The notes: generated by a model not told the origin, from the letters alone. DNA of 64,000 bases from a virus (IMGVR_UViG_3300033121_001676:32001-96000); one strand, 5' to 3'. Numbered from the stretch's first letter, positions 14,601 through 64,000 are shown. Numbers and translations: made by a program.

Positions 14601-17600
14601 GTGGATACTGGCTCGGTTATCATTGGAGTGATCAACAACCAACCAATCTGATTGAACTTCTTTCGTTGAGACCACTGACTTCTGGTACTGTGACTACGAA
14701 AGGAATTTATCGGTATGGGTACTATTTCAATGATGGTGATGATAGCAAGTACGGTTTTGGTCAACAGATTGGTGGTGTGAGATCTGTTACTGCTGAAAAA
14801 ACAGGATCATTAGTTGGTGCTCTTTCTAAAACTGAAACAATTGCAAGAAGTAATGGAACAGTTCACCAACTTGTCGTCGCTGATGGATTGAAAGGTTATG
14901 CGGCTATTGGATTGAATGCTATTGGCAATGCGAGAGATCTTGATTCTGGATTTAATCAATCACTTGGTACAACTGGAAATGACAATTCTCGCAAAGGCGC
15001 AAGCTTAGGTCTTGAATCTGGCATTCTTTCTGGAAAACAATATGGTTTCGCGTATTTGTTTGCCTCTGGAGATACGCCGAAAGATGCAGCGACAGGTACA
15101 GAGAATGCTTATTCAGGATCTTACGGTGTTCCTGTTAGTGCGATAGCAGCAAATCCAGAAGAAAAAAATGTCACCGGTATAAGAGTCAACCATTACAGTT
15201 CATCTGGCGGGATACAAGCAAGCGGAACAAGCGGTCAATCAGGAGGAGGTGGTCAAGGTAGTTCGACATTCCCAAACAACATCCTCTTCCATATTAATTC
15301 ACCAAACAAAAACACACTCTTCTACTTTGGCCCTGATGGAATGAAGGGTGTGTGGGATGGATATCAAAACGGATCTGCAAGAGTTGGATTTGCAGCAGGA
15401 TTGCAATTTGGATTTGGTGGCGGATGGTGGTGGGGCAACTACGTTTTTGGAAATCAAACAGGCCAAAATCAAAGCTCACTGTTTCCGTTCACACATACTT
15501 TCTTTGAAGGAGGTGCAAGTTCTCTTAAATTGACGATGACTGATTCGACAATGTTCCCAATTTCATCATTAAATATTGATCTTTCACAAAACTTTCCATC
15601 TGGAAACAATTCAAATATCAATAGTGTCTACAATTACACATATGGAACACGACCTGGTTCTGGAAGTGCGCCACCTCTTCCTAATGGAGTTGCAGCACTT
15701 CTTTCAATGCTTGTTGATGCTGTTCTTTCTTTGATGCATGATTTGCAATCACTTAGCCAAGTTGTTGATAACATACTACATGAAATTGATTCAATTTGGA
15801 AAAAGATCAAAGAAATACAGGCTGAACAAAAGAAAAATCGCAAGGTTATTATCAACATACTTATCATTATCATTATTGTCACAAAGAATAAGAAGAAGCA
15901 AGAAGGCGAACACCCCGGGATTGGCGGCACTACTCCAGGCGGAACGGGCACATCAACTCCGCAAGGTGGCACTACTGGACAGCCAGGACCGGGAGCAAAT
16001 TGGGGTAATGGAAGTGGCGGTGTCAATAGCAGTGGTCCATCAACTACTGGAGGTGTAACTGGCACTCCTGGTTGGAGTACGCCTTCTGGCCCAACATCAA
16101 CAACGACTGGTGGGGCTGCTGGTGGTGGTGCAAACGCAGGTGGAGAAAATCATCCTGGCGGAGGCACAAATGGAAAATCAAATGACAATAAGAACATCCA
16201 TACAGGAATGACTCAAGGTGCCAGTGCTGTCACTGGCAATGCAACACAATCAGCAGGATCAGGTAAACCTGCAAACGTTGCTGTTCTTGGTCTTATCGGT
16301 TCAAATCCTGTCTACACCGGCAGGCCAACAAAAGATCCAATCTTAACACCATCAGATAATTCAGAATACCGTCAAACAAATCCTCTTTCAATTCCAATTG
16401 GTGAAACATATAACCCAGAAACATTGAATCCTGATACATATCTTGTCGGGATACCAGAAGTTTCAAAATCAAGTGCTGCAACACTTTGGAGAATCGGTGG
16501 TGGTGGTGGATTGCCGAATGCTTCAACTGGACCGACAACAAATCCTGTCGCTCCAGTAACAAAGCCAGGAGATCCAGGTTGGCAGCCAGATCAAGATATT
16601 AGATCAATTCTTCAACTTGCAAGCAGAACACCGACAGTTGATCTTGATGCTGCTGGCAGGTGGACGATTGTTGGTGGAGATCAAATCTTCCCGACAATGT
16701 ATGATGCTGGTGGAAGAATTGCAATTAGCGATGATGTAAATGCAAGGGTGAATATCGGTGGTCTTATCGGAACAAATCTCGGTGTTTTGAAAACACTCGC
16801 AGGAATCGAAGCTCGTCCTGAACTCATAGTTTCAAAGAGATCTTTCGGTCTTGTTGTTACTGATGGCGCTTCTAATAAATTCATTTCAAATAACTTTGGT
16901 GCATATCAAGCAGCAGCACATAGTGACGGATCAGGTTACTATATTACAAATCCGAGTGAGACTCCAATCTTCGGTGGTGTGATTGGAACTATGATGAATC
17001 GTATCAATAGATATGATTCAAGAACATCGCCGACCAATACTGGTCTTTTTGTTAGTGCATCAGGCAGTGTCATTAATGCAAACTCAAGTATTGAAGAATC
17101 CATTATTGCAATTGATAGTTGCATCAGCTTTGTTGATCCGAACTCACATTATCAATCTGCAAATAATTCTGTTCAACAAAATCTTGAAGAAATTGGTTTT
17201 GTTGTTGCAGAACACACTTCTAAATGGCCGAACATTCCATTCAATCCTACAAGTGGTTTAGATCCTGGTGATTATAGTAGAATATTATCATTTGATACAA
17301 CACTCAATATGAATGTTGTTGAACTCGGAACAGGTATTGATAGTTACCTCGGATATTTGACAGCAAAAATTCCGGCTTGGTACAAAGCAAACGGATCAAC
17401 GGCATTCACAATTGATCTTTATTACACAATCACATCATCAAAATCATCAACAGAAAGATTTACGATTCAAGTTTCTTATAATTCTTTTGATGAAGCTGGC
17501 GCAGATTATGGCTCTGTTTCAACACAAACATTTGACCAAAATGTTACTGCATCAGAAACACCATATATTCCTAAAAAGATGACAATGAACATCACCACTG

Positions 17601-17725
17601 GAAGTTTTGGTGTTGCTGATGATATTGTTCAAATGAATCTTATGAGGCTTGGTTCGACAGATACATTTGAATTTTCAGTTCTTGTTTATGGATTTGTGAT
17701 TCGTAGTGGAGTCAAATATACATAG
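11669..17725 (+). CDS. Large tail-tip/hub-central fibre protein (2018 aa)
   Basis: Hub-like N-terminus, PPHTHS motif, coiled coil, Gly/Thr-rich linker and C-terminal beta domain; position after the Dit-like gene. Confidence 0.65.
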   Translation: MADPNILPEIRVDNEIDDEGGSFIEENLSIGTTPSTAKITIEGDDDLSVVSIDDPEHLSEGLAFEVEVTGVKISKTIYDNRQRAKRIIFTASFNSENSDRYMSLIDGKNYEDGHFQNMTYNDIIDYIVEKTRDFPGSELVLNTGNPKLNVYAGEFKFDNNDVVTAITQVLERAGNFSWWLKRNAGPPNTSVFTNEIEILDLGEPEQINIAVLGQNIYSADFTGSEDSYRPGVLVKDGDDDYGSKMQFGDPTDYGRTERGSETLNPLGPLVSRPIIRTDVPETIQFSAYDINAVDFGQGRRNLWTFPSSPNGSGDFLTQELQISVNKATAGTNRIGAIFEVPEVHTWPNAQPPIVDGRDFVKIERKLLTHPNVDLTIETYFSSHPTLSASETFHEKRITENGQVTNVISPGDQFATWKASKRIKGITDFIDQGKDSEFASYEFLQYDYLNNEGRDAKKVQLVLKPRPTWTSLPEYRIDFDRGYIFVPSSLFYLLGNWSPITVIKFTNDPDEAAGASTTTPKVVLQAKFEDALQNSAVRIIGVLSRPHRVAKKGDAPYAVIRKGDYKSTNVPFNAAGIQGFIRSDGPFNDFERMEHVAEALYQQNLNKTGARGRITIYPGDQSVFPGRGTNGGVIINVKHTYVPYFKTDISLTDDRKYYDLSDLAYKRELNQNKHIVDLNNQSIRTYLSRTGAGGSSGSSGAASLVPPHTHSDQFSGGTRLGDIIVNSITIEGDSKKGNESEPAINFNAGGEQGTLDVVFDPDKGKFVSQTSLFIDKRPDNQRVPNAKSNESTQFTDVNRAQARAPSSGYLHNLFDIGLVGTEISRVCLNIVPKPFEPLNEYSSQQANLRNYGGDRLFITDSQDRAGYLGTYTSNPVHLISRFSSGDTTGNSERWIRNSNTTPISMIGVAKPAYSRSTRVDENFFNNDVEVFGFASMIMDQSSGTTPAFKVDLDKQQSGNQKTTVDAGDPAIRYEAAKGSGYWLGYHWSDQQPTNLIELLSLRPLTSGTVTTKGIYRYGYYFNDGDDSKYGFGQQIGGVRSVTAEKTGSLVGALSKTETIARSNGTVHQLVVADGLKGYAAIGLNAIGNARDLDSGFNQSLGTTGNDNSRKGASLGLESGILSGKQYGFAYLFASGDTPKDAATGTENAYSGSYGVPVSAIAANPEEKNVTGIRVNHYSSSGGIQASGTSGQSGGGGQGSSTFPNNILFHINSPNKNTLFYFGPDGMKGVWDGYQNGSARVGFAAGLQFGFGGGWWWGNYVFGNQTGQNQSSLFPFTHTFFEGGASSLKLTMTDSTMFPISSLNIDLSQNFPSGNNSNINSVYNYTYGTRPGSGSAPPLPNGVAALLSMLVDAVLSLMHDLQSLSQVVDNILHEIDSIWKKIKEIQAEQKKNRKVIINILIIIIIVTKNKKKQEGEHPGIGGTTPGGTGTSTPQGGTTGQPGPGANWGNGSGGVNSSGPSTTGGVTGTPGWSTPSGPTSTTTGGAAGGGANAGGENHPGGGTNGKSNDNKNIHTGMTQGASAVTGNATQSAGSGKPANVAVLGLIGSNPVYTGRPTKDPILTPSDNSEYRQTNPLSIPIGETYNPETLNPDTYLVGIPEVSKSSAATLWRIGGGGGLPNASTGPTTNPVAPVTKPGDPGWQPDQDIRSILQLASRTPTVDLDAAGRWTIVGGDQIFPTMYDAGGRIAISDDVNARVNIGGLIGTNLGVLKTLAGIEARPELIVSKRSFGLVVTDGASNKFISNNFGAYQAAAHSDGSGYYITNPSETPIFGGVIGTMMNRINRYDSRTSPTNTGLFVSASGSVINANSSIEESIIAIDSCISFVDPNSHYQSANNSVQQNLEEIGFVVAEHTSKWPNIPFNPTSGLDPGDYSRILSFDTTLNMNVVELGTGIDSYLGYLTAKIPAWYKANGSTAFTIDLYYTITSSKSSTERFTIQVSYNSFDEAGADYGSVSTQTFDQNVTASETPYIPKKMTMNITTGSFGVADDIVQMNLMRLGSTDTFEFSVLVYGFVIRSGVKYT

Positions 17726-53445: not shown

Positions 53446-53877
53446 ATGCAAATTACAAGATCATTTGAAATTGATGCAGGCCATCGTGTTTATGGTCATG
53501 AAGGTAAGTGTGCCATGATTCATGGGCACAGATGGAAAATTGAAGTTACAATTGAAAATGATGTTTTGGATGAAGTTGGGCGTGTTCTTGATTATTCAGA
53601 AATGAAGCGTATTTTTGGTGGATGGCTTGATAAACACTGGGATCACAAACTCTTGATTTCCAATAATGATGTTCAATTAAGAAAGCTTTCATCTTCATTT
53701 GGGAGAGTTACAGTACCTTTTAATCCTACTTCAGAAAACATTGCGAAGTATTTGTTTGAAGTATTTGATGATTTAATTGAAGATGAATTGCATGGGAATT
53801 TATCAAAAGTTGTGAAAGTCAGAGTTTGTGAAACTCCTAACTGTTGGGCAGAATACATTCCTCTTGAGATCAAATGA
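53446..53877 (+). CDS. queD: 6-carboxytetrahydropterin synthase QueD
   Basis: DAGHR, KCAMIHGHRW, WDHK, NPTSENIA, ETPNCWA. Confidence 0.92.
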   Translation: MQITRSFEIDAGHRVYGHEGKCAMIHGHRWKIEVTIENDVLDEVGRVLDYSEMKRIFGGWLDKHWDHKLLISNNDVQLRKLSSSFGRVTVPFNPTSENIAKYLFEVFDDLIEDELHGNLSKVVKVRVCETPNCWAEYIPLEIK

Positions 53878-53893
53878 AGACAGGATATGGTTG

Positions 53894-54670
53894 ATGAAAC
53901 TCGTCATAAGTGAGATTTTTCACAACATTCAAGGTGAAGGTATCTGGCAAGGGACACCTTCATTTTTTTTAAGGACTGCTGGTTGTAGTATCAAATGCCC
54001 ATCCTGTGACACAATTTATTCTTGGGCAAAAGAGCGTGCTGAAGGTCTCTCAAAATCTGCATATTTTGAAATTGATACCGATGATATTGTGATGCAAATT
54101 GTCGAAACACATCTCAAATACATTGTCTTTACTGGTGGTGAACCTGTTGAGCAGATTGAACCACTTGTTGAGATCATGAAACATGATTTATTGAAGAATC
54201 GAATCTTTACGATTGAAACAAGTGGCAACATTGACTTTGATCCAACCCCATTCCACATGATTAGTATTTCTCCAAAAATGGCAGGAATGATGGGGAGAAA
54301 ACTACCTCATACAAGATACCTGCATTTGCCAAAATTGATTGAAACAGCATTTTTGAAAAGAAGAATGGTTCAACTCAAATATGTCATTGCAACGTTGGAA
54401 GATTTGCATGAAGCACAATCTTTGACAATGGATATTGTTCCAGAAAAGTATAGAGGAATGATTACTGTGATTTTTCAACCAAACAATTTGAACTTTAGTG
54501 CAGAATCAAATCCGATCAATGGTATTACTTCATATCTTGAAAATCTTAAGAATATGACATCACAGTTCATGGCAGGTGTGAAAAATGCTGGTTTTTATCA
54601 ATTCTTTCCACATACAAGAGTTCTGATGCAGAATCATTGGTTGCTTTATGGAAGACATCGCGGTACATGA
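53894..54670 (+). CDS. queE: 7-carboxy-7-deazaguanine synthase QueE (radical SAM)
   Basis: SEIFHNIQGEG, CSIKCPSCDT, FTGGEP, IETSG, ISPK. Confidence 0.92.
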   Translation: MKLVISEIFHNIQGEGIWQGTPSFFLRTAGCSIKCPSCDTIYSWAKERAEGLSKSAYFEIDTDDIVMQIVETHLKYIVFTGGEPVEQIEPLVEIMKHDLLKNRIFTIETSGNIDFDPTPFHMISISPKMAGMMGRKLPHTRYLHLPKLIETAFLKRRMVQLKYVIATLEDLHEAQSLTMDIVPEKYRGMITVIFQPNNLNFSAESNPINGITSYLENLKNMTSQFMAGVKNAGFYQFFPHTRVLMQNHWLLYGRHRGT

Positions 54671-54731
54671 GGATCTGGTTCATATCAGAGATGAAATCTA
54701 CATACACAAGGACTTTTTCAAAGGAAGAACG

Positions 54732-55049
54732 ATGAGGATTTCTGAAATACAAGAAAAGATGGTCGAATGGCTCCAGCACAATTTTCCAAATAGCGGTTGG
54801 CAAGATCAATTCATGGGTGTTGTTGAAGAAGTTGGTGAGCTTTCTCATTCACTTCTCAAACAGAAGCAAGGAATTCGTGGAACTTATGAACAACACGAAG
54901 CAGATGCGATAGATGCTGTTGGGGATATTGCAATCTATCTCCTTGCACTTTGTATTCGTCGTGGTTGGGATTTTGAAAAGATTGTGAATGATACTTTTGA
55001 TGTTGTTATGAAGAGAGATTGGAAGGCAAGACCAAATGGACCTGAATGA
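54732..55049 (+). CDS. MazG-like NTP pyrophosphohydrolase
   Basis: GVVEEVGEL...DAVGDIAIYL. Confidence 0.8.
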   Translation: MRISEIQEKMVEWLQHNFPNSGWQDQFMGVVEEVGELSHSLLKQKQGIRGTYEQHEADAIDAVGDIAIYLLALCIRRGWDFEKIVNDTFDVVMKRDWKARPNGPE

Positions 55050-55239
55050 AAAACAACCACAAAAACCACTTGATATCATGAAAAATGTTGAATTTCTTCG
55101 ACAGAGAGAAGAGTATATTGTAGAACTTTTGAATCTAACTTCAAAAATGATGTTTATCAGATATAAGAAGTTGATTGAGTGTGGTTTTACTGAATTCCAA
55201 TCTCTTGAAATCATCAAAGCAAGGGGATATATAGAATGA
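55036..55239 (+). CDS. Small hypothetical protein
   Basis: YKKLIECGFTEFQSLEII; coupled to queC. Confidence 0.45.
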   Translation: MDLNEKQPQKPLDIMKNVEFLRQREEYIVELLNLTSKMMFIRYKKLIECGFTEFQSLEIIKARGYIE

Positions 55240-55997
55240 AATCTTCAGGTGTTGGTCATGTTGTTTTAGTGAGTGGTGGTGCAGATTCTGCAACAGTTCT
55301 TGCGATGGCGAATGAACTTTACCAAGAAGAATTGAAATCTGGTATTGATAGCCATCTTGTAACTTTTCATTGCAACTATGGTCAAAGAACTGAATTGAGA
55401 GAGTTGACATCTTATAACAGAATTTGTGATCACTATTCAATCAAGGCAGAAGATAGATATATTATTGATATTGGTTATTTGACAAGAATTGGTGGAAGTT
55501 GCTTGACTGATAAGAAAATAAGTGTCCCAAAAGATGCTGAAGCATTGAAGAAAAAGATTGTACCAGTTTCTTATGTACCTTGCAGGAATCTTAATTTGCT
55601 TGCAATTGCATCTTCAATTGCAGCGGTTAAGGGATCAAGCAACATCTGGATTGGTGTTGTTGAACAGGACTCTTCAGGATATCCTGATTGTCGTGGTGAA
55701 TTTATTGATAATGCAAACCATGCAATTAATTGCGGTCTTCCGGATGGACATGATGTGGTTATTGATGCTCCTCTTCTTACGATGAAGAAGAGTGACATCA
55801 TTGCTGCTGGAATCAAACTTCAGGTGCCTTATCACATGACTTGGTCTTGTTATGAGGATAATTTTACGGCTTGTGGTGAATGTGACTCTTGCAGACTTCG
55901 TATTCTGAGTTTTGAAAAGAATGGCATTTGTGATCCGATCAACTATAACAGACCGTGGAACGAGATTGTTGATTTTGTTAAGGGATTCAAAGAATGA
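55236..55997 (+). CDS. queC: 7-cyano-7-deazaguanine synthase QueC
   Basis: SGGADS, NYGQR, YVPCRN, YPDCR, TWSCY...CGECDSC. Confidence 0.95.
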   Translation: MKSSGVGHVVLVSGGADSATVLAMANELYQEELKSGIDSHLVTFHCNYGQRTELRELTSYNRICDHYSIKAEDRYIIDIGYLTRIGGSCLTDKKISVPKDAEALKKKIVPVSYVPCRNLNLLAIASSIAAVKGSSNIWIGVVEQDSSGYPDCRGEFIDNANHAINCGLPDGHDVVIDAPLLTMKKSDIIAAGIKLQVPYHMTWSCYEDNFTACGECDSCRLRILSFEKNGICDPINYNRPWNEIVDFVKGFKE

Positions 55998-56227
55998 TAT
56001 GCGAAAAGCATAAAGTTCAATTCAAAGACCATTGCGAAGAATGTAAGAGAAATTATTTGATTGATTCTGCAACAGAATTTGAAAAAATCCGTAATGAAAT
56101 TCTATTCAAACAAAGATGGTTTTGGAATGATCCAGAAGTAGTCAATAATCCTGTGACCTATCAACACTCTACAGGGTCATATACTTTCACATTCTCTGGA
56201 GGTAATCAAAACAATGGTGCCTTCTGA
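55994..56227 (+). CDS. Small Cys/His protein
   Basis: CEKH...CEEC. Confidence 0.4.
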   Translation: MICEKHKVQFKDHCEECKRNYLIDSATEFEKIRNEILFKQRWFWNDPEVVNNPVTYQHSTGSYTFTFSGGNQNNGAF

Positions 56228-56786
56228 TAAAGAATCTTATCTTGCTTCAATTTATGCAAATATTCTTGAATTCACACTTTATCCGAATTGGAGGGATGAT
56301 CCGAATACGAAAGAAACCCCGAGGAGGGTTGCAAAATCTCTTCTTGAATTGACTTCTGGTTATACAGAAGATGTTGAACAGTATATCAAAACTTTTGATA
56401 CGAGTGAATATAATCAAATCATAGCAGTCAAAAATATTGACTACTATAGCCTCTGTGCTCATCACATGCTTCCTTTCTTTGGAAAGATTACTGTTGCATA
56501 TATCCCGAATGGAAAAGTTCTTGGATTGAGCAAGTTTGCAAGAATTTCGCACGCATTCGCAAGAAGATTGCAAATTCAAGAACAGTTAACTGAACAGATT
56601 TGCAACTTTATCCATGAAAGACTTAAGCCAAAGGCAACTGCCGTCTATATCACAGGCACACATCTTTGCATGTCAATGAGAGGTGTTGAATGCCCGAATG
56701 CTGTGACAGAAACTTCAGCATTGCGTGGTGCATTCATGGATGAAGCTGAAACAAGGGCTGAACTATTTAAGATCATAAAATCGTGA
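56214..56786 (+). CDS. folE: GTP cyclohydrolase I FolE
   Basis: ETPRRVAK, SLCAHHMLPF, GLSKFAR, LQIQEQLT, HLCMSMRG. Confidence 0.95.
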   Translation: MVPSDKESYLASIYANILEFTLYPNWRDDPNTKETPRRVAKSLLELTSGYTEDVEQYIKTFDTSEYNQIIAVKNIDYYSLCAHHMLPFFGKITVAYIPNGKVLGLSKFARISHAFARRLQIQEQLTEQICNFIHERLKPKATAVYITGTHLCMSMRGVECPNAVTETSALRGAFMDEAETRAELFKIIKS

Positions 56787-56835
56787 ACAACAACGTGCCA
56801 AATCCGCCATTCCTGGCTTGTTTGAGCGGTTTTGG

Positions 56836-56844
56836 TGCTATAAT
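56836..56844 (+). promoter_or_regulatory. Extended -10 promoter upstream of queF-dpdA
   Basis: TGC-TATAAT in the intergenic region. Confidence 0.4.
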
Positions 56845-57003
56845 GGTGCAACTCGTATGTATGCACAAAAACAAGCCAGGAGAAGCGATTGTGGGCCATT
56901 CTTGCCTTTTTGATTGTAAGTTGGCCGGTTTGGTTTCCGTTGTGGTGGATCTTTTTTCATAAAAAGAACGTCAAACAAGAAAAAGTAGAAGAGGTCAGGT
57001 GCA

Positions 57004-57453
57004 ATGGATGCTGCTCAAAACACTGTTACAATTCCATTGAATCCGAAAGATTTGAAGACGACTCACCGCTTAGAGGCATTTCCGAATGAGTATAGTGGCA
57101 CAAGGCCATACCAGATAAAGTGTAGAAGTGATGAGTTTTCAGCTGTTTGCCCAAGATCTGGACTTCCTGATCTTTACACTCTTGAAATTACATACATTCC
57201 TGGTGACTACTGTGTTGAATTGAAAAGTTTGAAGATGTATTTGACATGTTTCCGTAATGTTGGAATGTTTGTTGAAAATCTTGCAAACCTCATTGCAGAC
57301 AATTTTGTTGAAGCAATCCACCCTCATTTTTTGCAGGTTGTAATACAGCAAGCAATTCGAGGTGGAATTTTCACGACAGTAAACGTCACTCGTGGAAAGC
57401 ACCCTGAAGAACCTGAAGTTGTTGGTTCTGATGATTATGATACAATGTCATGA
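57004..57453 (+). CDS. queF: PreQ0 reductase QueF (type I)
   Basis: EFSAVCPRSGLPD, QueF motif VELKSLKMY, RGGI. Confidence 0.9.
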   Translation: MDAAQNTVTIPLNPKDLKTTHRLEAFPNEYSGTRPYQIKCRSDEFSAVCPRSGLPDLYTLEITYIPGDYCVELKSLKMYLTCFRNVGMFVENLANLIADNFVEAIHPHFLQVVIQQAIRGGIFTTVNVTRGKHPEEPEVVGSDDYDTMS

Positions 57454-57965
57454 TTAACACACTGGCAGCAAAAAGAGAGTATATTGGCAAATCAATCTTG
57501 CCAAGTATGTCATTCTATGTCATTATTCAAAAGGATGGCAATAGATCAGGATATTGCACATTTGATGATCCTACAAGTGAAGGCGGGTCAGATCCTGTAA
57601 GGACATTGGTTGCATTCACTAATCAAGAAAAAGCTGAGAAGTATATTGTTGATCAATTGAGAGGAATAGGAGAAGTTAAAGTAATCAATCTCACAACAAG
57701 AGGTGCTGGTGATTTATTTAGAATGATGATTAAGAACAAGATTTACTTCTTTACTTTTGATAGGACTCCTTTTGTTGCAATTAGAGATTTGGGAAATTGT
57801 GTCTTCATTTCTATCAAGCTTTTTGCTGAAGTTGTTGGTAAGTATGTTGAAGCAGTTAAAGAATTGGCAATGAGAGAAAAGTGGCTGCCAGATGATTCAA
57901 TGATTGTTGATTTGCCAGAGAATGTGAAAGATATTGTTGAAGGAAGAAATAAAAGAGGAAGTTGA
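57450..57965 (+). CDS. Hypothetical protein
   Basis: Coupled between queF and the dpdA-like gene. Confidence 0.5.
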   Translation: MINTLAAKREYIGKSILPSMSFYVIIQKDGNRSGYCTFDDPTSEGGSDPVRTLVAFTNQEKAEKYIVDQLRGIGEVKVINLTTRGAGDLFRMMIKNKIYFFTFDRTPFVAIRDLGNCVFISIKLFAEVVGKYVEAVKELAMREKWLPDDSMIVDLPENVKDIVEGRNKRGS

Positions 57966-58969
57966 TGTGCTCAAAACTTTATGATCCACACAACATTCTT
58001 TCTCATGATCGAATAAATATTATCTTTGCTGGCAGTGTCAAGATTAGTGATTTTGAAGGATGGGATATTAAGAAAAGACTTGTTTGCCACGAAGATACGA
58101 AAATTACTTATCAACATCTTGATTTCTATCGATCAATGCCAAAGATGTTTATTATTCTTGATTCAGGCGCATTTTCTGCCTGGACAAAAGGCGCAGAAAT
58201 CAATATTGATGAATTCACATTAAAAATCATTGAATATTCAGATATTTTGAACATGGCCGCCAATCTTGACGTCATTCCAGGCAGCCGTGGAAATAGACAG
58301 ATTACTGAAAGTCAAAATGAAGAAGCTGCAATTGCTGGTTGGAAGAACTACATTTACATTTTGAATAAGTTGAAATGGCATGGCCGAGAAGATCTTACAA
58401 CAAGAATAATGCCTATCCATCATCAAGGTGAAAAACTTGATGTTTTGAAGAGAATGATTGATTATGGTTGCACATATGTTGGCATTAGCCCAAGCAATGA
58501 TGCGACAACAATACAGAGAATTAAATATCTTGATGAAGTATTCTCATACCTTCTTACTCTACCTGAGAGGATCTTAACGCACGGTTATGCAGTTACAAGC
58601 GAAGTATTGATGGCGAAGTATCCTTGGTTCACAGTTGATTCAATTAGTTGGATATATACTGCTGGTTTCGGGACAGTGAAGACGCCGTTTGGAAGCTTTT
58701 GCTTCAGTGAAGATCCGAGATCACTTAAGAATAAAGAAAACTTACTCATTACTTTTGATGAAGACGGTTCTTGGACAATAGGTAATCCTGAATACCAGCA
58801 CTTGAAGAATGACTTAGAACAATATCTTGTTGAACAACTTATGATTGATCCGCATTCACTTGGTCAAGACTATTGGGCAAGAGCGAAAGCGAACATACTT
58901 TATCTGCAAGAATTTGAAAGAAATGCTATTTTGAGAAACAAGATTGAACATTCAACTCAAATACTTTAG
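57962..58969 (+). CDS. dpdA: DpdA-like 7-deazaguanine DNA transglycosylase (TGT fold)
   Basis: ILDSGAFSAW, NLDVIPG, MPIHHQGE, THGYAVT, YPWFTVDSISW; clustered with que genes. Confidence 0.75.
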   Translation: MMCSKLYDPHNILSHDRINIIFAGSVKISDFEGWDIKKRLVCHEDTKITYQHLDFYRSMPKMFIILDSGAFSAWTKGAEINIDEFTLKIIEYSDILNMAANLDVIPGSRGNRQITESQNEEAAIAGWKNYIYILNKLKWHGREDLTTRIMPIHHQGEKLDVLKRMIDYGCTYVGISPSNDATTIQRIKYLDEVFSYLLTLPERILTHGYAVTSEVLMAKYPWFTVDSISWIYTAGFGTVKTPFGSFCFSEDPRSLKNKENLLITFDEDGSWTIGNPEYQHLKNDLEQYLVEQLMIDPHSLGQDYWARAKANILYLQEFERNAILRNKIEHSTQIL

Positions 58970-59046
58970 ACCTACGTTACTTAATGCGGCAAAAGCAAAG
59001 TGTTGTGAATTGCGTAGAAGCCGCTTTTTCCGCTGCAATGGCATTG

Positions 59047-59052
59047 TATAAT
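59047..59052 (+). promoter_or_regulatory. -10 box upstream of the Ubl operon
   Basis: TATAAT in a 145-bp intergenic gap; no clear -35. Confidence 0.35.
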
Positions 59053-59114
59053 AGGTGCGCGCTCAATGTTTGGGCGCATAGTGTGCAATTGGCAGCAACA
59101 CAAGGAATGCAACA

Positions 59115-59510
59115 ATGAGTCCTGCAAAGGGTGGCGGTGGTCGGATGGGCAAGGGGCCGAAGAAGGCCACGAAGACCTCGAAGCCGAACGTGACTTCGGT
59201 CGCGGAGGGCAGCGTCTTCATCTGCAAGATGGGCGAAACTCCCATCGAGGTGAAGGACGTTTCGGCCGGGACCAGGATGGTGGACGTGCTCCGCCGTGCC
59301 GTGTTCCCGCCGGGCGTGATCAAGGGCCGTGGTGGGCGTGACATCAGCAACGTCATCGAGGCCGCCGAGGCCGACGTTGCTGCCGGGCGCATCGGCAACA
59401 TCGGGCAGGCGTTCAACACTGTGCGCGTGAACGCGCAGCCCGCGACCCTCGAGACGCTCATCAACCCCGGGGACCAGATTTCGCTGATTCCCAACATCAC
59501 CGGCGGCTGA
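59115..59510 (+). CDS. Ubiquitin-like (ThiS/MoaD beta-grasp) protein ending in GG
   Basis: AAGGA RBS; VRVNAQPATLETLINPGDQISLIPNITGG-stop; basic N-terminal tail; GC-rich. Confidence 0.85.
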   Translation: MSPAKGGGGRMGKGPKKATKTSKPNVTSVAEGSVFICKMGETPIEVKDVSAGTRMVDVLRRAVFPPGVIKGRGGRDISNVIEAAEADVAAGRIGNIGQAFNTVRVNAQPATLETLINPGDQISLIPNITGG

Positions 59511-59513
59511 GAA

Positions 59514-59559
59514 CCAAAAAATACCCGGCACCTTTCTGGTGTCGGGTATTTTTTTTTGG
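59514..59559 (+). terminator. Intrinsic terminator between Ubl and E2 genes
   Basis: ATACCCGGCACC-TTTCT-GGTGTCGGGTAT stem, T9 run (59549-59557), A-tract in front. Confidence 0.85.
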
Positions 59560-59569
59560 AGCAAATGGA

Positions 59570-60961
59570 ATGAGCACTGCAATTACCGGATTCACCAAAA
59601 CAACATTCCAGGGTAAACTTCCCGAGGATTGTTCTTCATTTGCCCCAATGCTCAATGGTGAGTTGCGTGAAGAGTTCGAAACAGCTCTCAGTGGAATGGC
59701 TGTTGAGTTCAAGAGAAATCTGGAAATTGTTGGAACTTCTCATTACCCGCAATTTTTCAAAGAAGATGATCCAATTATCGCATTGAGGAAGCCAAAGACA
59801 ATCTTCATCCACCCGTTCTCATTGCCAGATGGCAGCACACCTGAATTCAAGGAACTTTCGGAAGAGCTTGTTGTTACCAAGAAGAAGTATAAGCTTCGCG
59901 GACTTCAAAGGGACGCGATGGTTTATAGCGGTCCGAAGATTGTCGGATTCCTCATGCTTTCTGGTGACAAAGTTGGTGATTCAAAAGGTGATGTGCTTAC
60001 GCTTTTTCATGCACACCACATCTACTTCGTTGCTGATTTCTTCGATATGTCCGGTGGTGAGTGGGAAACACTTACTCCCGAAGACAAGATTGCTACTGCT
60101 CGTGAATCCTTCGAAATGATCCTGGATATTCTTGAGATTTCGATCAAGTGTATGCAGGAAAAGTTCAAACTGGATGATTTCGAAGCTCTTGAATCACAGA
60201 GGATCGAGAAAATAAAGAATTCTTGGGTTGCAAATTATCCGAAATTGGTTGAATTGAAGAATAAGGGACTTAAAGATACCTATCTTGCAGAAAGAGATAG
60301 GTTAGTGACAATGGAAGAAGAGTATCGTGTTGCTTGTGACAATTACCAGAATGCGAAGAGAAATTATGATGATGCTGTGTTGAATTCTGGTTCCATTGCA
60401 GCGGTTTCAAATGACAGAATGTTTGCTGGTTTGATGAATAGTTTCTATGAATCGATTGATATTGATACTTCTGCGAAGTGTATTGTGGCATTGACAAAGA
60501 TGATCTTTATTCGTGAATCTGGAAGAATTTACGCAATTGGACAGATCAAAATCAGAATTCCGCTTGAAACAAGTGCGTCTATTGTTGCTGAAAACATTGC
60601 CCCAATGACTATTTCTGGTGAAAGGATTCACCACCCACACATCAACGGGAGTGGTGGAATTTGTCTCGGCAACACGCACAGTGTTGTTTCTGATTTGAGG
60701 AAGAAAGGAAGTATCCTTGAACTGCTTGAACTGTTGGGCAGTTTCATGTTTTCATATAATGTGAAGAGCGTCTTCACAAAGATCACTGTGTTTAAGGATG
60801 TTACTGAACAATTCAGTGAAGAAGAGATTGCTTACGATAATGATCAAAACAGAGAAGAGAAGAGTGCGGCAAATGCCGAACAGCTGATCAATGTTTTGAG
60901 AAGAGCGGCTGCACCAGCTCCAGTAACAGCTATTCCTCCAGTTGAGACGGGAGGTGTTTGA
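59570..60961 (+). CDS. E2/UBC-like conjugating enzyme with N-terminal domain and coiled coil
   Basis: HHPHINGSGGICLG matches the E2 HPN(x)nC active-site pattern (Cys365), followed by helices as in the UBC fold. Confidence 0.7.
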   Translation: MSTAITGFTKTTFQGKLPEDCSSFAPMLNGELREEFETALSGMAVEFKRNLEIVGTSHYPQFFKEDDPIIALRKPKTIFIHPFSLPDGSTPEFKELSEELVVTKKKYKLRGLQRDAMVYSGPKIVGFLMLSGDKVGDSKGDVLTLFHAHHIYFVADFFDMSGGEWETLTPEDKIATARESFEMILDILEISIKCMQEKFKLDDFEALESQRIEKIKNSWVANYPKLVELKNKGLKDTYLAERDRLVTMEEEYRVACDNYQNAKRNYDDAVLNSGSIAAVSNDRMFAGLMNSFYESIDIDTSAKCIVALTKMIFIRESGRIYAIGQIKIRIPLETSASIVAENIAPMTISGERIHHPHINGSGGICLGNTHSVVSDLRKKGSILELLELLGSFMFSYNVKSVFTKITVFKDVTEQFSEEEIAYDNDQNREEKSAANAEQLINVLRRAAAPAPVTAIPPVETGGV

Positions 60962-60962
60962 A

Positions 60963-62978
60963 ATGGGTCGTAGCAAAATGAGAAAGAGGTCTCGTTCCGG
61001 TTTTGTTTCAAATACATCCTACAGCCACAAAATTCCTGAAAACATTCCGTTCACGCCAAGAATTCGAAGAGCAATTAGCGTTCCGAGCAATCGGAATTTG
61101 AACGAAAAAGGTCTTCGTGTATATATTCCTCTCAGGGTGTATCAGAAGATGCTTGCTTTGACCATGGTTGCGACTTCGGAAACGAGCGCAATGGGCGTCG
61201 TTCACTTGGAAAAAGATGGTGAACGCACGACATTTGGTCAAGAAATTTGGGTAGATGACATTCATTACGTTCATAACACTTCAAGCTCTGCTTCGACAAC
61301 CCTTGATGCTGGAGATCTTTCAAGATTGCAAATTGAATTGATGCAATCTGGCATTGATTTGCTTGGATTCAGATTGTGGTTTCACACGCACTACAATTTC
61401 AATGTTTTCTGGTCTGGCACTGATAAGAATACAGCTATCAATGTGCTTGAAAACTCACGTTGGACGTTGAGTATTGTGATGAACCAGAAGCAAGAACTTC
61501 TGGCTCGCGTTGATAAGTACCGTCCAACGCATGTTGAATATGATAATGTTCCAATCTATATTGTTAATGATGTTCGCAAATCGCAATGGGATCTTTGGTG
61601 TGAAGAGGCAAAATCAAAGATCAATACCAGTGTGATTGACACTTCAAACAAGATACTTTCAAAAGAGTTTGAAGAGTACATGCGTTCTCAAGGAATGGTT
61701 GTTGATAATACTGATGTGAAAAAGGTTGAGAGTGAGGTTGAAGTTGTTGCTGATCCGTTTGGCATTCCACAAGATAATCGTCCTACTGGCGGGAATATCC
61801 TTTATCTTCCTGGCAGTGAGGTGAGTGATGAAGAAAATGAACTTCTTGCTCATTTCGGAATTGTGGAAGATACAATTGGTCTGATTGAAAATGAAGTTGA
61901 GCCTCCAGAAGTTGAAGATACACAAGATACTGAAGTTGATGGAGAAAAGACATACTTTGAATATTCATGCAGTTGTGGTAATGAAATGCTTGTTGATAAT
62001 GATGATTTGAAATTCCGGTGTTCTGGTTGTAAGCAATTGTTCGTGAACAATGATGCTGTTCAAAGAAAAGAGATTGAAAACCAGAAGAAGAAAGAGTCTG
62101 TTGTTGTAAAAGTTGCGAATCCTGCCGCAGATGGTGACGAGTTGTATAATTTCGCGATTAGGGTCAAAAAATTCTTGCTTGAAACACCAGCACATCTGGA
62201 TGATTTCATTGGTGTCACTAACAAAGATATTATTCCACCAGAAAAGAGCGATTGTGAAAATTATATCGCTACTGTGTTGGAGAGTTTTACGATTACGAAA
62301 GAGCCAGAATTGATTGCTCGTAGTGATTTCTATAAGAGAAAGGTTGATGATGAACTGAGGTTCTTTGGATCGTATGGAATTTTCAGGATGTATTATTCCA
62401 GGAAGACAAAGAAGATCCTTGCTTGCAGAGAACACCCGACAATTGATACTACGATTAACATTCCATTCAAATCATTCATTAGTGGTGAGATGGTTAAGGA
62501 ATGTTGTATTCCTGTTTTGAATAAAAATGGTGTATTGACTATACGGAGTCTCGCGTGCTCGGATCGATCTGATGATCTTAGATACTACTATAATGTGATT
62601 AAAAAGTCATTCTTTTACAATTTCCTTCCTACGATCAAAGATGAAAGAACGGAATGCCCGAATACCGTTCCAATTGAAACACTCCCAAATAATGATCTGA
62701 AAAAGATCATTACCAGTGCGTTGAAATTTGTTGGTGAAAAAGAAAAAACGATTCGACTTGAACAGAGATCGAATCGAAATGGAATGTCTGTTGATACTGG
62801 TAGGGATACCAGACCATCACAAAGCTATATTTCTGGTGGAACTTACAAACGTGATGATTATATCTACCATGGTGGATACTATGGTGGGAATTATCAAGGT
62901 GGCTACTACAACAGGGAACGTGATGAGCTCGAACGTGTGTTCTTGAGGCTTGATCCGGAAAACATCAGCAACGATTGA
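60963..62978 (+). CDS. JAB/JAMM (MPN+) metallopeptidase with long C-terminal extension
   Basis: GGAGG RBS; ETSAMG and WFHTHYNFNVFWSGTD (E...HxH-x7-S-x2-D); acidic linker; CSC...CSGC ribbon. Confidence 0.85.
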   Translation: MGRSKMRKRSRSGFVSNTSYSHKIPENIPFTPRIRRAISVPSNRNLNEKGLRVYIPLRVYQKMLALTMVATSETSAMGVVHLEKDGERTTFGQEIWVDDIHYVHNTSSSASTTLDAGDLSRLQIELMQSGIDLLGFRLWFHTHYNFNVFWSGTDKNTAINVLENSRWTLSIVMNQKQELLARVDKYRPTHVEYDNVPIYIVNDVRKSQWDLWCEEAKSKINTSVIDTSNKILSKEFEEYMRSQGMVVDNTDVKKVESEVEVVADPFGIPQDNRPTGGNILYLPGSEVSDEENELLAHFGIVEDTIGLIENEVEPPEVEDTQDTEVDGEKTYFEYSCSCGNEMLVDNDDLKFRCSGCKQLFVNNDAVQRKEIENQKKKESVVVKVANPAADGDELYNFAIRVKKFLLETPAHLDDFIGVTNKDIIPPEKSDCENYIATVLESFTITKEPELIARSDFYKRKVDDELRFFGSYGIFRMYYSRKTKKILACREHPTIDTTINIPFKSFISGEMVKECCIPVLNKNGVLTIRSLACSDRSDDLRYYYNVIKKSFFYNFLPTIKDERTECPNTVPIETLPNNDLKKIITSALKFVGEKEKTIRLEQRSNRNGMSVDTGRDTRPSQSYISGGTYKRDDYIYHGGYYGGNYQGGYYNRERDELERVFLRLDPENISND

Positions 62979-62985
62979 GGACAAG

Positions 62986-63693
62986 ATGGGCATTGTCGAA
63001 CGTGATGAACAGTTCATGCGCCAGAAGGATTTCCTCCCTCACAACCTTTGGGATGATGTGAGGATCCACTTCGTTGGTGTTGGTGGTATCGGGAGTGCAG
63101 CAGCTTTTGTTCTTGGCAAGATCGGTGCAAGGAAGATCAACCTCTACGACCCAGATACCATTGAACGCCACAACATCTCGAACCAGATGCTCAGTGCAAC
63201 GGAAGACAAGATTGGTCTTCCGAAGGTTGCAGATCTTGGCGGCATTCTTCTCGATCTTTGCAATGATGAAATTGATGTGAAGGCGTATAAGAGAAAGGTT
63301 GATGAACAACTTGGTTTTGTTTTTGAACAAGGTGAACGCAACATCGTAATCTGTGGCCCTGACAACATGAAGACACGCAAGTTCGTCTGGGAACTTGTCA
63401 AGGGCAACGAAAATGTCATTTGCTATATTGATGGAAGAATGGCGACGAGAATCTTCAAGCTTTATAGCATTGACCCGAATGATGCAGAATCTTACGAATC
63501 TTACGAAAAGACACTGCACAGTGATGAGGATGCCGAACCACTCCCTTGCAGTGATCGATCTGTGTTCCACACAAATATGATTCTTGCAAGTACCATTGCA
63601 GAGATGGTGCGCAGATTCATTACTCCTGATTCTGCGCCGTACCACCAAGAGATCTTGTTTGACCTCATCAACCTTGGATGGATAATTGACTAA
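62986..63693 (+). CDS. ThiF/E1-like activating enzyme
   Basis: FMRQ, VGVGGIGS, YDPDTIERHNISNQ, GLPKV, GPDN, YIDGRM, PLPC. Confidence 0.9.
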   Translation: MGIVERDEQFMRQKDFLPHNLWDDVRIHFVGVGGIGSAAAFVLGKIGARKINLYDPDTIERHNISNQMLSATEDKIGLPKVADLGGILLDLCNDEIDVKAYKRKVDEQLGFVFEQGERNIVICGPDNMKTRKFVWELVKGNENVICYIDGRMATRIFKLYSIDPNDAESYESYEKTLHSDEDAEPLPCSDRSVFHTNMILASTIAEMVRRFITPDSAPYHQEILFDLINLGWIID

Positions 63694-64000
63694 TGATTTG
63701 TAGAAAGTGTGCGATTCAATACAGTGGTACACATGTTTGCAATTTCAAACTCGGAGATTTCAAAGTTTTCAAGAGAATCCGCAATACTGAATTTGTAATA
63801 GTTGCAGAATATGGTAGATTTCCACTTTTTCCAATGAATGGTCATACTTATAATGATTTGATTTCTCGTGATCAACAATTGATTCATTTCAAAAGTTCGA
63901 TAATTATCGATGATTTTGCAATCAAAATTAAAAGTGATCCTTTTGCAAATGCTATATTGTTCAAAAAGAAAACTGCTACAGTTGATTTGAATAGTGTTGC
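63693..64000 (+). CDS. Partial ORF coupled to E1, with N-terminal CxxC...HxC
   Basis: TAATG overlap; MICRKCAIQYSGTHVCNFKLGDFKVF... stays open to the window end; absent from the ORF track. Confidence 0.6.
   Translation, partial: MICRKCAIQYSGTHVCNFKLGDFKVFKRIRNTEFVIVAEYGRFPLFPMNGHTYNDLISRDQQLIHFKSSIIIDDFAIKIKSDPFANAILFKKKTATVDLNSV

Follow-up and report, generated by a model that had tools for sequence, protein, structure and literature searches.

We found that a large phage of the virulent type carries four co-oriented genes, encoding a ubiquitin-like tag (Ubl), an E2-like protein, a JAB/JAMM metalloprotease and an E1, which are predicted, with fair probability, to form a self-contained, virus-encoded ubiquitin-like conjugation system. 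Direct reading of the window, that is, the whole stretch of 64,000 nucleotides analysed here, places all quoted motifs at the coordinates collected in Table 1; the complete Ubl–E2–JAB–E1 cascade put forward in a preliminary description is supported, the fold or motif of each part fitting its role. E1/E2/JAB/Ubl kits have so far been studied only as bacterial anti-phage defences; this one is encoded by a phage, and we found no paper in the literature describing phage Ubl cassettes.

The contig is a virus record of 97% completeness, with phage genes for a tape measure, primase, polymerase and helicases, and gave no integrase match. Because of that record and the missing integrase match, we take the source to be a virus and not host DNA, which disposes of the mis-assembled host contig that the preliminary description had named as grounds for abandoning its reading. 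A survey of one genome each of 185,579 prokaryote species found no close relative.

Table 1. Features of the cassette and its surroundings, in window positions; residue numbers of the JAB protein count from TTG 60942.
Feature	Position	Strand	Residues	Details
QueE	53828-54670			7-deazaguanine cluster
QueC	55236-55997			7-deazaguanine cluster
FolE	56214-56786			7-deazaguanine cluster
QueF	57004-57453			7-deazaguanine cluster; Pfam match E=8.6e-22
DpdA-like DNA guanine transglycosylase	57962..58969	+		phrog_887 queuine tRNA-ribosyltransferase, E=1.4e-31; context gene, with no demonstrated part in the mechanism
Intergenic region 5' of Ubl gene	58970..59114	+		TG-TATAAT at 59045-59052; AAGGA ~10 nt before ATG
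Ubl tag	59115..59510	+	131 aa	ends IPNITGG, then TGA
Terminator-like hairpin	59521..59557	+		12-bp stem then U8 run, between Ubl and E2 genes
E2-like protein	59570..60961	+	463 aa	
E2 N-terminal mixed alpha/beta domain			~12-165	no assigned fold
E2 long helical hairpin			~170-272	
E2 C-terminal UBC-fold domain	60383-60814		~272-415	
E2 active-site stretch			355-368	HPHINGSGGICLGN
E2 HPH	60632-60640		355-357	
E2 candidate catalytic Cys	60662-60664		365	codon
JAB/JAMM metalloprotease	60963..62978	+	671 aa from ATG 60963; 678 aa from TTG 60942	
JAMM domain			~55-215	Glu80, His148, His150, Ser158, Asp161
JAMM motif	61383-61424 (exact)			HTHYNFNVFWSGTD; E..HxHx7Sx2D
JAB zinc ribbon	61968-62030		343-363	CxC...CxxC
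Minimal E1, ThiF/MoeB-size adenylation domain	62986..63693	+	235 aa from ATG 62986	
E1 GVGGIGS	63076-63096			
E1 invariant Cys	63547-63549		188	codon; in PLPCSD, [P]C[ST][DEQ]
Conserved fifth gene	63693..64000 in the window, ends 64313	+	206 aa	

The tag ends in NITGG and a stop codon, as the preliminary description had it. A disordered tail rich in Lys, Arg and Gly (residues ~1-34, pI 10.7) precedes a beta-grasp core (residues ~35-131). Pfam ThiS matches four of seven Ubl orthologues (best E=2.7e-5), one orthologue matches Ub-RnfH and one SAMP2; the best PDB profile match is the C-terminus of MoaD, and the Atlas model of residues ~30-130 matches Ub-RnfH, ThiS, MoaD and TGS clusters with TM-scores by target of 0.5-0.67. 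Sequence and model thus fit a predicted beta-grasp like that of ThiS, MoaD and RnfH, its Gly-Gly end being free. The tag ends in GG-stop in five loci, in GGSN in L008 and in GGM in L010, and across relatives the C-termini comprise GG-stop, GGSN, GGM, KGNN and AAG, as expected for a tag matured by the JAB protein.

The tag gene has a GC content of 65%, and its GC3 stands at 0.85 where the genome median is 0.37; in every orthologous phage the GC3 of this gene is above that of its neighbours. Reading of the upstream sequence suggests that the TG-TATAAT site is possibly the tag's own promoter; a consensus promoter scan did not call it, giving only a weaker site at 59089-59116. The hairpin behind the gene has a fold energy of -27.8 kcal/mol (z=-6.3), and a hairpin of different sequence with a U run stands at the same place in L002, L004, L006, L007 and L008; the relatives' z-scores run from -4.1 to -6.3 in four and reach a non-significant -1.7 in L002. 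High GC3 and the conserved hairpin, which like the basic tail do not figure in the preliminary description, together suggest strong expression of the tag, with the enzymes made in smaller amounts, the hairpin probably acting as a partial terminator that holds the tag in excess.

The preliminary description had recognised an HPH-type active site in the 59570 protein, which we confirm, and had made its reading depend on a UBC fold there; the AF2 model, Foldseek and VIA-align agree on that fold. The model, built from a 110-sequence alignment, has a pLDDT of 87.6, and nearly all of its best ~50 Foldseek matches in the PDB are E2 enzymes (E 0.014-0.09), while a crAss-like 435-aa protein is among the viral matches. 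VIA-align of the domain aligned 111-124 residues, spanning UbcH5 residues 2-140, at Z 5.8-6.3, where a Z under 8 is moderate taken alone. By phmmer, 34 of 36 weak PDB matches are UBE2D-type E2s, with RIhHPhINgsGgICL aligning without gaps to RIyHPnINsnGsICL, a motif match that is not significant by itself (E 0.5-1). H355, P356, H357, C365 and G367 are each at least 90% conserved among 110 homologues. No Pfam UQ_con or Prok-E2 match was obtained for the protein itself, and UQ_con matches, weakly, one of 59 relatives. The evidence from sequence and model fits a putative UBC fold with an HPN-type Cys loop, the fold match being moderate (Z ~6, Foldseek E ~1e-2).

In the JAB protein, the intact JAMM motif of the preliminary description lies exactly where it had been placed, and the JAMM residues and four zinc-ribbon cysteines are invariant across eight orthologues. 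Its profile matches the Caldiarchaeum Rpn11-like protein 6fjv over the motif (E=1.4e-3), where WFHTHYnFdVFWSgTD aligns against WYHSHPGLDVFLSPTD, and yeast Rpn11 more weakly. The zinc ribbon gives a weak Pfam CSL match; the C-terminal ~300 aa have no assigned family. The upstream TTG starts first favoured for JAB and E1 were not upheld, gene callers and ortholog alignments giving ATG 60963 (also in agreement with P0121) and ATG 62986. The idea that the JAB protein is a deconjugase, the tag being already mature, is reasonable for the present phage; however, relatives' tags end in GGSN, GGM or longer extensions, and the JAB family would therefore also act as maturase.

The E1 matches Pfam ThiF (E=5.4e-19), with every NCBIfam match far below its cut-off, and its profile matches MoeB, ThiF, MccB, UBA5, UBA3, UBA6 and BubCD. 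The PADLOC E1-E2 and BilD models match its Rossmann part only, BilD over residues 38-146 of the ORF as read from the TTG (247 aa; E=1.1e-6). In a 12-sequence alignment the RQ motif, GxGGIGS, Asp55/Asp57, Lys80, Asp126 and Cys188 are invariant, the Asp and Lys positions being those of ATP and Mg binding in the superfamily, and CxxC zinc pairs are absent from all 12 orthologues; neither a separate Cys domain nor a ubiquitin-fold domain is present. The GxGGxG, the PLPC Cys and the lack of CxxC thus stand as the preliminary description gave them, but its Arg finger does not in the classical form: the NLxRQ Arg is an invariant Asn (HNxxNQ), and an invariant Arg sits in the N-terminal RQ. The profile alignments end near residue 140 and so align Cys188 to no known catalytic Cys. 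By sequence, the protein fits a ThiF adenylation domain with an invariant Cys.

The Cys/His protein proposed as a fifth member is indeed a conserved gene, and it runs past the window's end (its ORF is 6694-7314 of L001, the present locus). The protein opens with a CCHC zinc-knuckle-like motif, M-I-C-x2-C-x2-Q-Y-x-G-x-H-x-C, followed by a variable body; Pfam, NCBIfam, PHROGs and PADLOC gave no match to it. In L002, L005, L006 and L008 the gene directly 3' of E1 opens with this motif too, and ten further paralogues lie at L001 10624-14325. The protein might serve as an adaptor, be itself a target, or have nothing to do with the cassette.

The order DpdA–Ubl–E2–JAB–E1–CCHC protein is repeated in four to five contigs of related phages from metagenomes (the loci sharing gene set and order are L002/L003, L004/L005, L006, L007 and L008). 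Across independent contigs the Gly-Gly end, HPH..C, JAMM residues and E1 Cys are kept in proteins only 30-60% identical, and for this reason we consider the motif set more than chance. Among the distant E2 homologues, five had contig context that could be used, and four of these also have ThiF; in all four, a JAMM gene separates E2 from ThiF and a small gene of beta-grasp-like type lies in the vicinity. We therefore regard the cassette as a unit independent of its neighbours. In the flanks fetched for the distant cassettes L010 and L015-L017, no queuosine or DpdA gene was called. In the present phage, the DpdA-like gene is the last of a 7-deazaguanine cluster directly 5' of the cassette (the set covered here is QueE, QueC, FolE, QueF and DpdA). 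DpdA is directly upstream of the cassette in five phage loci, with proteins ~60% identical directly before the Ubl gene in L002, L004, L006 and L007; in L007 it adjoins the tag gene though other queuosine genes are not nearby. The Lys/Arg-rich tail, at pI 10-12, is found only in this DpdA-linked Ubl lineage.

By analogy with the known families, a thioester cascade that ends on lysines is the likeliest mechanism. The tag would be produced in large amounts, ready to use with a free Gly-Gly, from its own codon-optimised transcription unit ending in a leaky terminator. The minimal E1, which is probably homodimeric in the manner of MoeB, ThiF or UBA5, would adenylate Gly131 with ATP, load the tag on Cys188 as a thioester and hand it to Cys365 in the UbcH5-like HPH-x7-C loop of the E2, which would pass it on to the amino groups of lysines in proteins of the phage or the host. 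The cassette contains no recognisable E3, so targets are probably chosen by the E2 N-terminal domain and coiled coil, possibly with the CCHC proteins. The JAMM protease would strip or edit conjugates and, in relatives with residues after Gly-Gly, mature the tag; the basic N-terminal tail may offer lysines for chains or lend tagged proteins affinity for nucleic acids. Against such a cascade count the moderate strength of the UBC fold match, the lack in E1 of the classical NLxRQ Arg and of any known E2-docking element by which it could meet the E2, and the profile alignments that leave Cys188 without a known catalytic counterpart.

The same genes might instead be a mobile defence set outside the phage's own programme, a Bil-like weapon that tags the virion proteins of competing phages and so brings about superinfection exclusion. 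Every prokaryotic E1/E2/JAB/Ubl operon so far characterised is anti-phage, namely Bil and type II CBASS (PMC11601596, PMC10557695), and the PADLOC matches of E1 point the same way. Yet the position of the cassette, within the arm for replication and nucleotide metabolism, is fixed among related phages whose proteins are by now only 30-60% identical, which fits a core gene set and not a host-acquired add-on; the lack of an integrase match, of the features that define Bil and of close relatives among the prokaryote species surveyed also speaks against a weapon, which we regard as unlikely. A sulfur carrier seems more doubtful still: the adenylated tag would be thiocarboxylated and give sulfur to a base or cofactor of the neighbouring 7-deazaguanine genes, with the UBC-like protein as persulfide relay or scaffold. 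By sequence, the tag comes closest to ThiS and MoaD, the E1 is of MoeB/ThiF size and matches those proteins best, and DpdA is the upstream neighbour. Against this, neither rhodanese nor cysteine desulfurase nor another sulfurtransferase family was found among the cassette proteins (a host donor elsewhere is conceivable), the MoeB/ThiF CxxC zinc pairs are missing, sulfur transfer requires neither a JAMM protease nor the near-invariant HPH..C loop of E2 type, and a long basic tail is as atypical of sulfur carriers as a very high GC3. In the known pathway to preQ0/preQ1 no step involves sulfur (PMC10516641). A sulfur relay, which the preliminary description had doubted on account of the E2, is also weakened by the cassettes with no queuosine gene called in the flanks fetched.

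The constant adjacency of DpdA allows a DNA-modification role instead. The E2~tag thioester would then be resolved by the amine of dPreQ1 (7-aminomethyl-7-deazaguanine) in phage DNA, or by another small amine, DpdA supplying the dPreQ1 and the basic tail lying on the DNA, with protein–DNA hypermodification as the outcome. We know of no precedent in prokaryotes for E2-mediated transfer to a DNA base. The queuosine genes directly upstream, the persistence of DpdA beside the tag gene in L007 and the confinement of the basic tail to the DpdA-linked lineage favour such an acceptor, and phages with the full FolE, QueD, QueE, QueC, QueF and DpdA set are expected to hold dPreQ1 in their DNA, its amine being methylated or formylated after insertion (PMC10516641). 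These pointers are all contextual; synteny among related phages may be plain inheritance, and there are distant cassettes with no called DpdA gene in the flanks fetched; we consider a non-protein acceptor highly improbable. Its specific form, in which the abundant tag goes not, or not only, to proteins and the E2 transfers it to the DpdA-inserted dPreQ1 aminomethyl group, is a long shot; if true, the tag would be a covalent protein-on-DNA hypermodification shielding the genome from host nucleases.

We compared the cassette with known systems. It shares a Gly-Gly beta-grasp carrier with the ThiS/MoaD–ThiF/MoeB sulfur-carrier systems; their other hallmarks, two CxxC zinc pairs in the E1 and a sulfur donor such as a rhodanese domain, IscS or ThiI, were not found, CxxC being absent from 12 E1 orthologues and no sulfurtransferase family turning up in the cassette proteins. 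MoeB, ThiF, MccB and UBA5, minimal homodimeric E1-like proteins, have the size and single adenylation domain of the present E1 and are its best profile matches (E 2e-13 to 3e-12); unlike them, it lacks CxxC pairs, has Asn for the NLxRQ Arg and an invariant Cys in PC[ST], and is paired with an E2 and a JAB protein. The UBC fold of eukaryotic and archaeal E2s (UBE2D/UbcH5 type) extends over the whole core, and HP[N/H]-x7-C is gapless against UbcH5, the Asn of HPN being His here. A Ub-E1-E2-RING-Rpn11 operon has reportedly been described in the archaeon Caldiarchaeum, whose Rpn11-like protein is the best solved relative of the present JAB; in contrast to the Caldiarchaeum and eukaryotic systems, the phage tag is ThiS/MoaD-like and not ubiquitin-like in sequence, the E1 is minimal and there is no RING E3.

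Among phages, lambda/T1 TAPI and the JAB-NlpC protein TAPK likewise place a beta-grasp protein with a C-terminal Gly beside a JAB peptidase (PMC1779556), but without E1 or E2 and among tail genes, whereas the present cassette has both enzymes and lies within the arm devoted to DNA metabolism. ΦcrAss001 (gp79-gp76), cr128_1 (gp086-083) and Flavobacterium phage FpV4 (gp53-50) have the same order of a beta-grasp-like protein, an H[S]H..C.G protein, JAMM and ThiF, with E1s 29-36% identical to ours; a longer precursor carries their tag as its N-terminal domain, DpdA is not a neighbour, and in their E2-like protein 17-20 inserted residues separate HSH from Cys. Kinship of the two E2 types is not significant (hhalign E=0.05, probability 1%), and the ΦcrAss001 and FpV4 set is, as an unconfirmed assignment, a very distant look-alike. 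The annotation of their ThiF gene reads 'thiamine biosynthesis protein' for crAss001 and FpV4, but 'hypothetical protein' for cr128_1.

Several bacterial assignments were rejected. Type II CBASS Cap2/Cap3, in which an E2-E1 fusion acts on a CD-NTase and Cap3 is the JAB, does not apply, as E2 and E1 are separate genes flanking the JAB gene and no CD-NTase family was found in the cassette proteins; nor does PRTRC (NCBIfam TIGR03734-03742), for which TIGR03736 scored 18.3 bits against a cut-off of 144.75 and no other model matched. Bub (6E/DUF6527) has E1 and E2 without a catalytic Cys, working through oxyester intermediates, and a DUF6527 serine protease (PMC11601596); here the E1 Cys is invariant, the E2 Cys at least 90% conserved and DUF6527 unmatched. 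Bil (BilABCD, types I and II; operon class 6d of Iyer et al. 2006; ISG15-like and anti-phage) has the same four roles in one operon and, like the present cassette, a Cys-based E1 and E2, no E3 and, as in the relatives here, a JAB that matures the tag (PMC10557695, PMC1779556). We reject membership because the E1 is single-domain without CxxC and the E2 lacks CEHH; the PADLOC BilA, BilB and BilC models matched nothing in the cassette, and no PADLOC model matched the E2. Bil E1 combines inactive and active adenylation domains with a mobile inserted Cys domain and a four-Cys zinc site, in contrast to a single 235-aa domain without these, and Bil E2 carries CEHH, its key His after the Cys (PMC10557695), whereas here HPH precedes the Cys and C-x-G-N follows, with eukaryote-like HPH–Cys spacing and a 270-aa N-terminal extension. 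Bil is host-encoded, whereas the present cassette is encoded by a virus.

The 463-residue E2-like protein had no match in Pfam, PHROG, NCBIfam or PADLOC; a word-indexed homologue search returned only the protein itself, and a viral-contig scan with its sequence alone retrieved nothing. An exhaustive HMMER search yielded 120 cluster representatives, 8 of them full-length; the C-terminal 130 residues alone are the common part in most of the others. The conserved motif is HPH[VI]-x3-6-G-x2-C-[LWF]-G-N ... FL-x-SYN-x3-PY, whose downstream segment we take to parallel LL-x2-PN-x3-PL of UbcH5. AlphaFold with a 110-sequence alignment gave a model with pLDDT 87.6 (single-sequence AF2, at pLDDT 36, was not usable), predicting a mixed alpha/beta N-terminal domain (residues 12-165), a long helical hairpin (170-272) and a compact C-terminal domain (272-415). 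The ~50 best Foldseek matches of this model in the PDB were essentially all E2 enzymes, at weak E values of 0.014-0.09, and VIA-align placed residues 272-415 onto whole E2 cores (Z 5.8-6.3, 111-124 residues aligned). With the UBC domain alone, phmmer gave 36 weak matches, 34 of them UBE2D-type E2s, and GERIHHPHINGSGGICLG of the phage protein aligned without gaps to TTRIYHPNINSNGSICLD, the catalytic Cys85 loop of UbcH5; H355, P356, H357, C365 and G367 are at least 90% conserved. Searching the PDB with the full-length profile gave mainly coiled-coil matches, and a wider VIA structure search was dominated by the 202-278 helix, leaving domain 12-165 without an assigned fold. No single line is strong; jointly, fold, alignment and conservation read clearly as a UBC-fold E2 with a predicted cysteine active site.

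The JAB most likely starts at ATG 60963. Glu80, His148, His150, Ser158 and Asp161 (numbered from TTG 60942) are invariant in eight orthologues, as is a CxC...CxxC zinc ribbon; the JAB profile aligned across the JAMM motif with a Caldiarchaeum Rpn11-like protein (E=1.4e-3) and, more weakly, with yeast Rpn11. Some 300 C-terminal residues have no family assignment, scanning viral, genome and metagenome collections with the JAB profile gave only one contig, already in our set, and Ubl, E2 and JAB all lacked matches in PADLOC, PHROGs and NCBIfam. The E1, 235 residues most likely from ATG 62986, matched Pfam ThiF (E=5.4e-19) and, as a profile, MoeB, ThiF, MccB, UBA5, UBA3, UBA6, UBA1 and BubCD, in alignments that end before the Cys188 region. 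Twelve orthologues share an invariant N-terminal RQ, GxGGIGS, Asp55/57, Lys80, Asp126 and Cys188; the PC[ST] context of this cysteine is a candidate likeness to P-x-C-T, which we take to be the catalytic-Cys context of UBA3, UBA1 and SAE2. The E1 has no CxxC pairs, second adenylation domain, inserted Cys domain or ubiquitin-fold domain, and an invariant Asn occupies the Arg position of NLxRQ.

The tag itself is a 131-residue protein ending in IPNITGG, with the stop codon immediately after; five other contigs encode orthologues in which ITGG or IEGG precedes the stop codon or, in the related contig L008, GGSN does; a distant orthologue ends in GGM. Pfam ThiS matched four of seven orthologues (best E=2.7e-5), and Ub-RnfH and SAMP2 one each; the C-terminal strand of MoaD was the top PDB profile match, and the ESM Atlas model of residues ~30-130 resembles Ub-RnfH, ThiS, MoaD and TGS clusters (TM by target 0.5-0.67), all of them beta-grasp families. 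Close orthologues carry a Lys/Arg/Ala/Gly-rich N-terminal tail (residues 1 to 32-61, pI 10-12) that is absent from the tags of distant cassettes. The preliminary description had named a beta-grasp protein ending NITGG-stop, an E2-like active site and an intact JAMM motif, all of which these searches and models bear out; of its ThiF/E1, the GxGGxG, the PLPC cysteine and the lack of CxxC stand, while its Arg finger is Asn at the NLxRQ position, the invariant arginine lying in the N-terminal RQ.

The tag gene has a GC content of 65% and a GC3 of 0.85 (genome median GC3 0.37), and its GC3 exceeds that of neighbouring genes in every orthologous phage too. A stable hairpin and U run directly follow its stop codon in the window and at all five orthologous loci, differing in sequence at each (z-score -4.1 to -6.3 in five of the six; -1.7, not significant, in L002). 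Together, high GC3 and the post-stop hairpin and U run suggest that the tag would be produced in excess of its enzymes. A handful of other genes reach GC3 0.75-0.85; PHROGs gave these no match or function. Genes with strong expression may have adapted their codons to a GC-rich host, or the genes may have been acquired recently.

Locations of the cassette and associated features (unprefixed coordinates, window; L001 and L011, stretches of the same phage genome)
Feature	Location	Content
Ubl (tag)	59115-59510	
E2-like	59570-60961	
JAB	60963-62978	
E1	62986-63693	
Cys/His protein	63693-64313	206 aa; runs beyond window end
7-deazaguanine DNA-modification cluster	53828-58969	QueE, MazG-like, QueC, FolE, QueF, 171-aa gene, DpdA-like
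Two very large ORFs	9574-17725	700 aa, 2018 aa
Tandem CCHC-start paralogues	L001:10624-14325 = genome 99623-103324	10 genes, 107-141 aa; ~3.3 kb beyond window end
tRNA genes (n=4)	L011:2247-2319, 15475-15549, 16019-16091, 16657-16729	Lys-TTT, Phe-GAA, Gly-GCC, Ala-TGC
Other GC3 0.75-0.85 genes	L001:8420-8704; L001:10019-10570; genome 201-1079, ~9100-10700 (L011)	
Two-repeat tag gene, distant cassette	L015:5295-5921	
ΦcrAss001 locus	L014, NC_049977.1	gp79-gp76; beside primase, UDG genes
cr128_1 locus	L019	beside primase, UDG genes
FpV4 locus	L020	gp53-gp50; beside primase, UDG genes

The window covers bases 32001-96000 of one 108,446-bp contig, which IMG/VR lists as a virus record of 97% completeness; nearly all of the window's genes lie on the + strand. 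The contig's recognisable genes specify a primase, a DNA polymerase, SbcC, helicases of DnaB-like and other types and a tape-measure protein, and the whole virus record has no integrase match; by this content it is a large tailed phage, not a host contig, and probably virulent. The mis-assembled host contig that the preliminary description named as fatal to its reading is rejected on the near-complete virus record, the phage genes and the lack of a close relative among 185,579 prokaryote species searched at one genome each. After the tape-measure gene lie two very large ORFs that have no PHROG match and are presumably tail-tip or fibre proteins; three of the four phage tRNA genes sit among GC-rich islands near 15.5-16.7 kb.

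Genes on either side of the cassette also recur. The DpdA-like transglycosylase is the last gene of the 7-deazaguanine cluster, upstream of the cassette. 7-Aminomethyl-7-deazaguanine in DNA is expected for phages with a full set including QueD (PMC10516641); the QueE, QueC, FolE, QueF and DpdA-like genes read here, from a set that when full also has QueD, predict dPreQ1-type modified DNA. Downstream, the Cys/His protein starts MICxxCxxQYxGxHxC, and a gene with the same CCHC start directly follows E1 in L002, L005, L006 and L008. Ten tandem paralogues all share this start (M-I-C-x2-C-x2-Q-[YHF]-x-G-x-H-x-C) on divergent bodies; neither they nor the Cys/His protein matched a family in the libraries searched, NCBIfam included, and the CCHC genes are an expanded phage gene family.

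The order DpdA-Ubl-E2-JAB-E1 is kept in the related metagenomic phage contigs L002/L003, L004/L005, L006 and L007; L008 starts at the Ubl gene. Distant E2 homologues with usable context have a ThiF 2-4 genes downstream in four of five cases, and all four loci place a JAMM gene between E2 and ThiF, with a small beta-grasp-like gene nearby; the ends of such genes in distant cassettes include GGM, KGNN and AAG. No queuosine or DpdA genes were called in the fetched flanks of the distant cassettes, so by gene neighbourhood the cassette is an independent unit, its DpdA link being specific to one lineage. One distant tag gene (L015) encodes two beta-grasp-like repeats, the first ending KRIKGN, and a Cys-rich tail, and would be a poly-Ubl precursor in need of processing.

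Against 50,697 phage records, neither megablast with the cassette nor tblastn with E2 and JAB gave a match, and none of 185,579 prokaryote species, each represented by one genome, showed a close relative. E1 relatives 29-36% identical occur in ΦcrAss001 and other crAss-like phages, as well as in phages of Flavobacterium and Xanthomonas. The three loci inspected (ΦcrAss001, cr128_1, FpV4) all have the same four-gene order: a beta-grasp-like N-domain that closes with KSG or KSGG and continues into an extension, an HSH...C.G protein at the E2 position, a JAMM protein and a ThiF. GenBank names the ThiF of cr128_1 'hypothetical protein' and those of ΦcrAss001 and FpV4 'thiamine biosynthesis protein'. 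Alignments by hhalign of E2 with crAss001 gp78 and of Ubl with gp79 were not significant.

Most likely, the cassette would run a classical cascade without a recognisable E3, in which the tag would be adenylated and passed through E1 and E2 thioesters to lysine, and the JAMM protease would reverse the conjugates. The sulfur relay that the preliminary description offered as an alternative, with the tag a sulfur carrier instead of a protein conjugate, is weakened: the objection already raised there, the E2, is upheld by its conservation, and to it are added the conserved JAB, an E1 without zinc pairs, the failure to find a sulfurtransferase among the cassette proteins, and distant cassettes that have no queuosine genes called in their fetched flanks. 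As a Bil-like weapon against competing phages the cassette would use unchanged chemistry, but this idea fits poorly with its core-like position and vertical inheritance. More speculatively, transfer of the tag onto DNA would link its basic tail with the neighbouring DpdA gene and the amine of dPreQ1.

We class these cassettes as a family of predicted Ubl conjugation systems carried by viruses; we found no description of phage-encoded E1/E2/JAB/Ubl cassettes in the literature searched. To our knowledge, prokaryotic Ubl conjugation has been characterised only as anti-phage host immunity (Bil, type II CBASS), with Bub unassigned. A complete protein-conjugation cascade owned by a virus would reverse the direction of this arms race, and raises the questions of how a phage benefits from protein tagging, whether the tagging disturbs the Ubl defences of the host, and whether viral cassettes had a part in spreading E2 enzymes. 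ΦcrAss001 and FpV4, possible distant look-alikes, are culturable and, if the kinship is true, genetics could address the question.

The cassette fails the membership tests of CBASS, Bub and PRTRC alike; Bil is functionally nearest, although its defining E1 and E2 features are absent here. The phage E1 resembles MoeB, ThiF and UBA5, and is of MoeB-like small size. The E2 loop stands closer to the E2s of eukaryotes, UbcH5 in particular, and of archaea than to any bacterial E2 so far characterised. With a UbcH5-like E2 loop and a MoeB-sized E1, the pair could be a very compact model of E1-to-E2 transfer.
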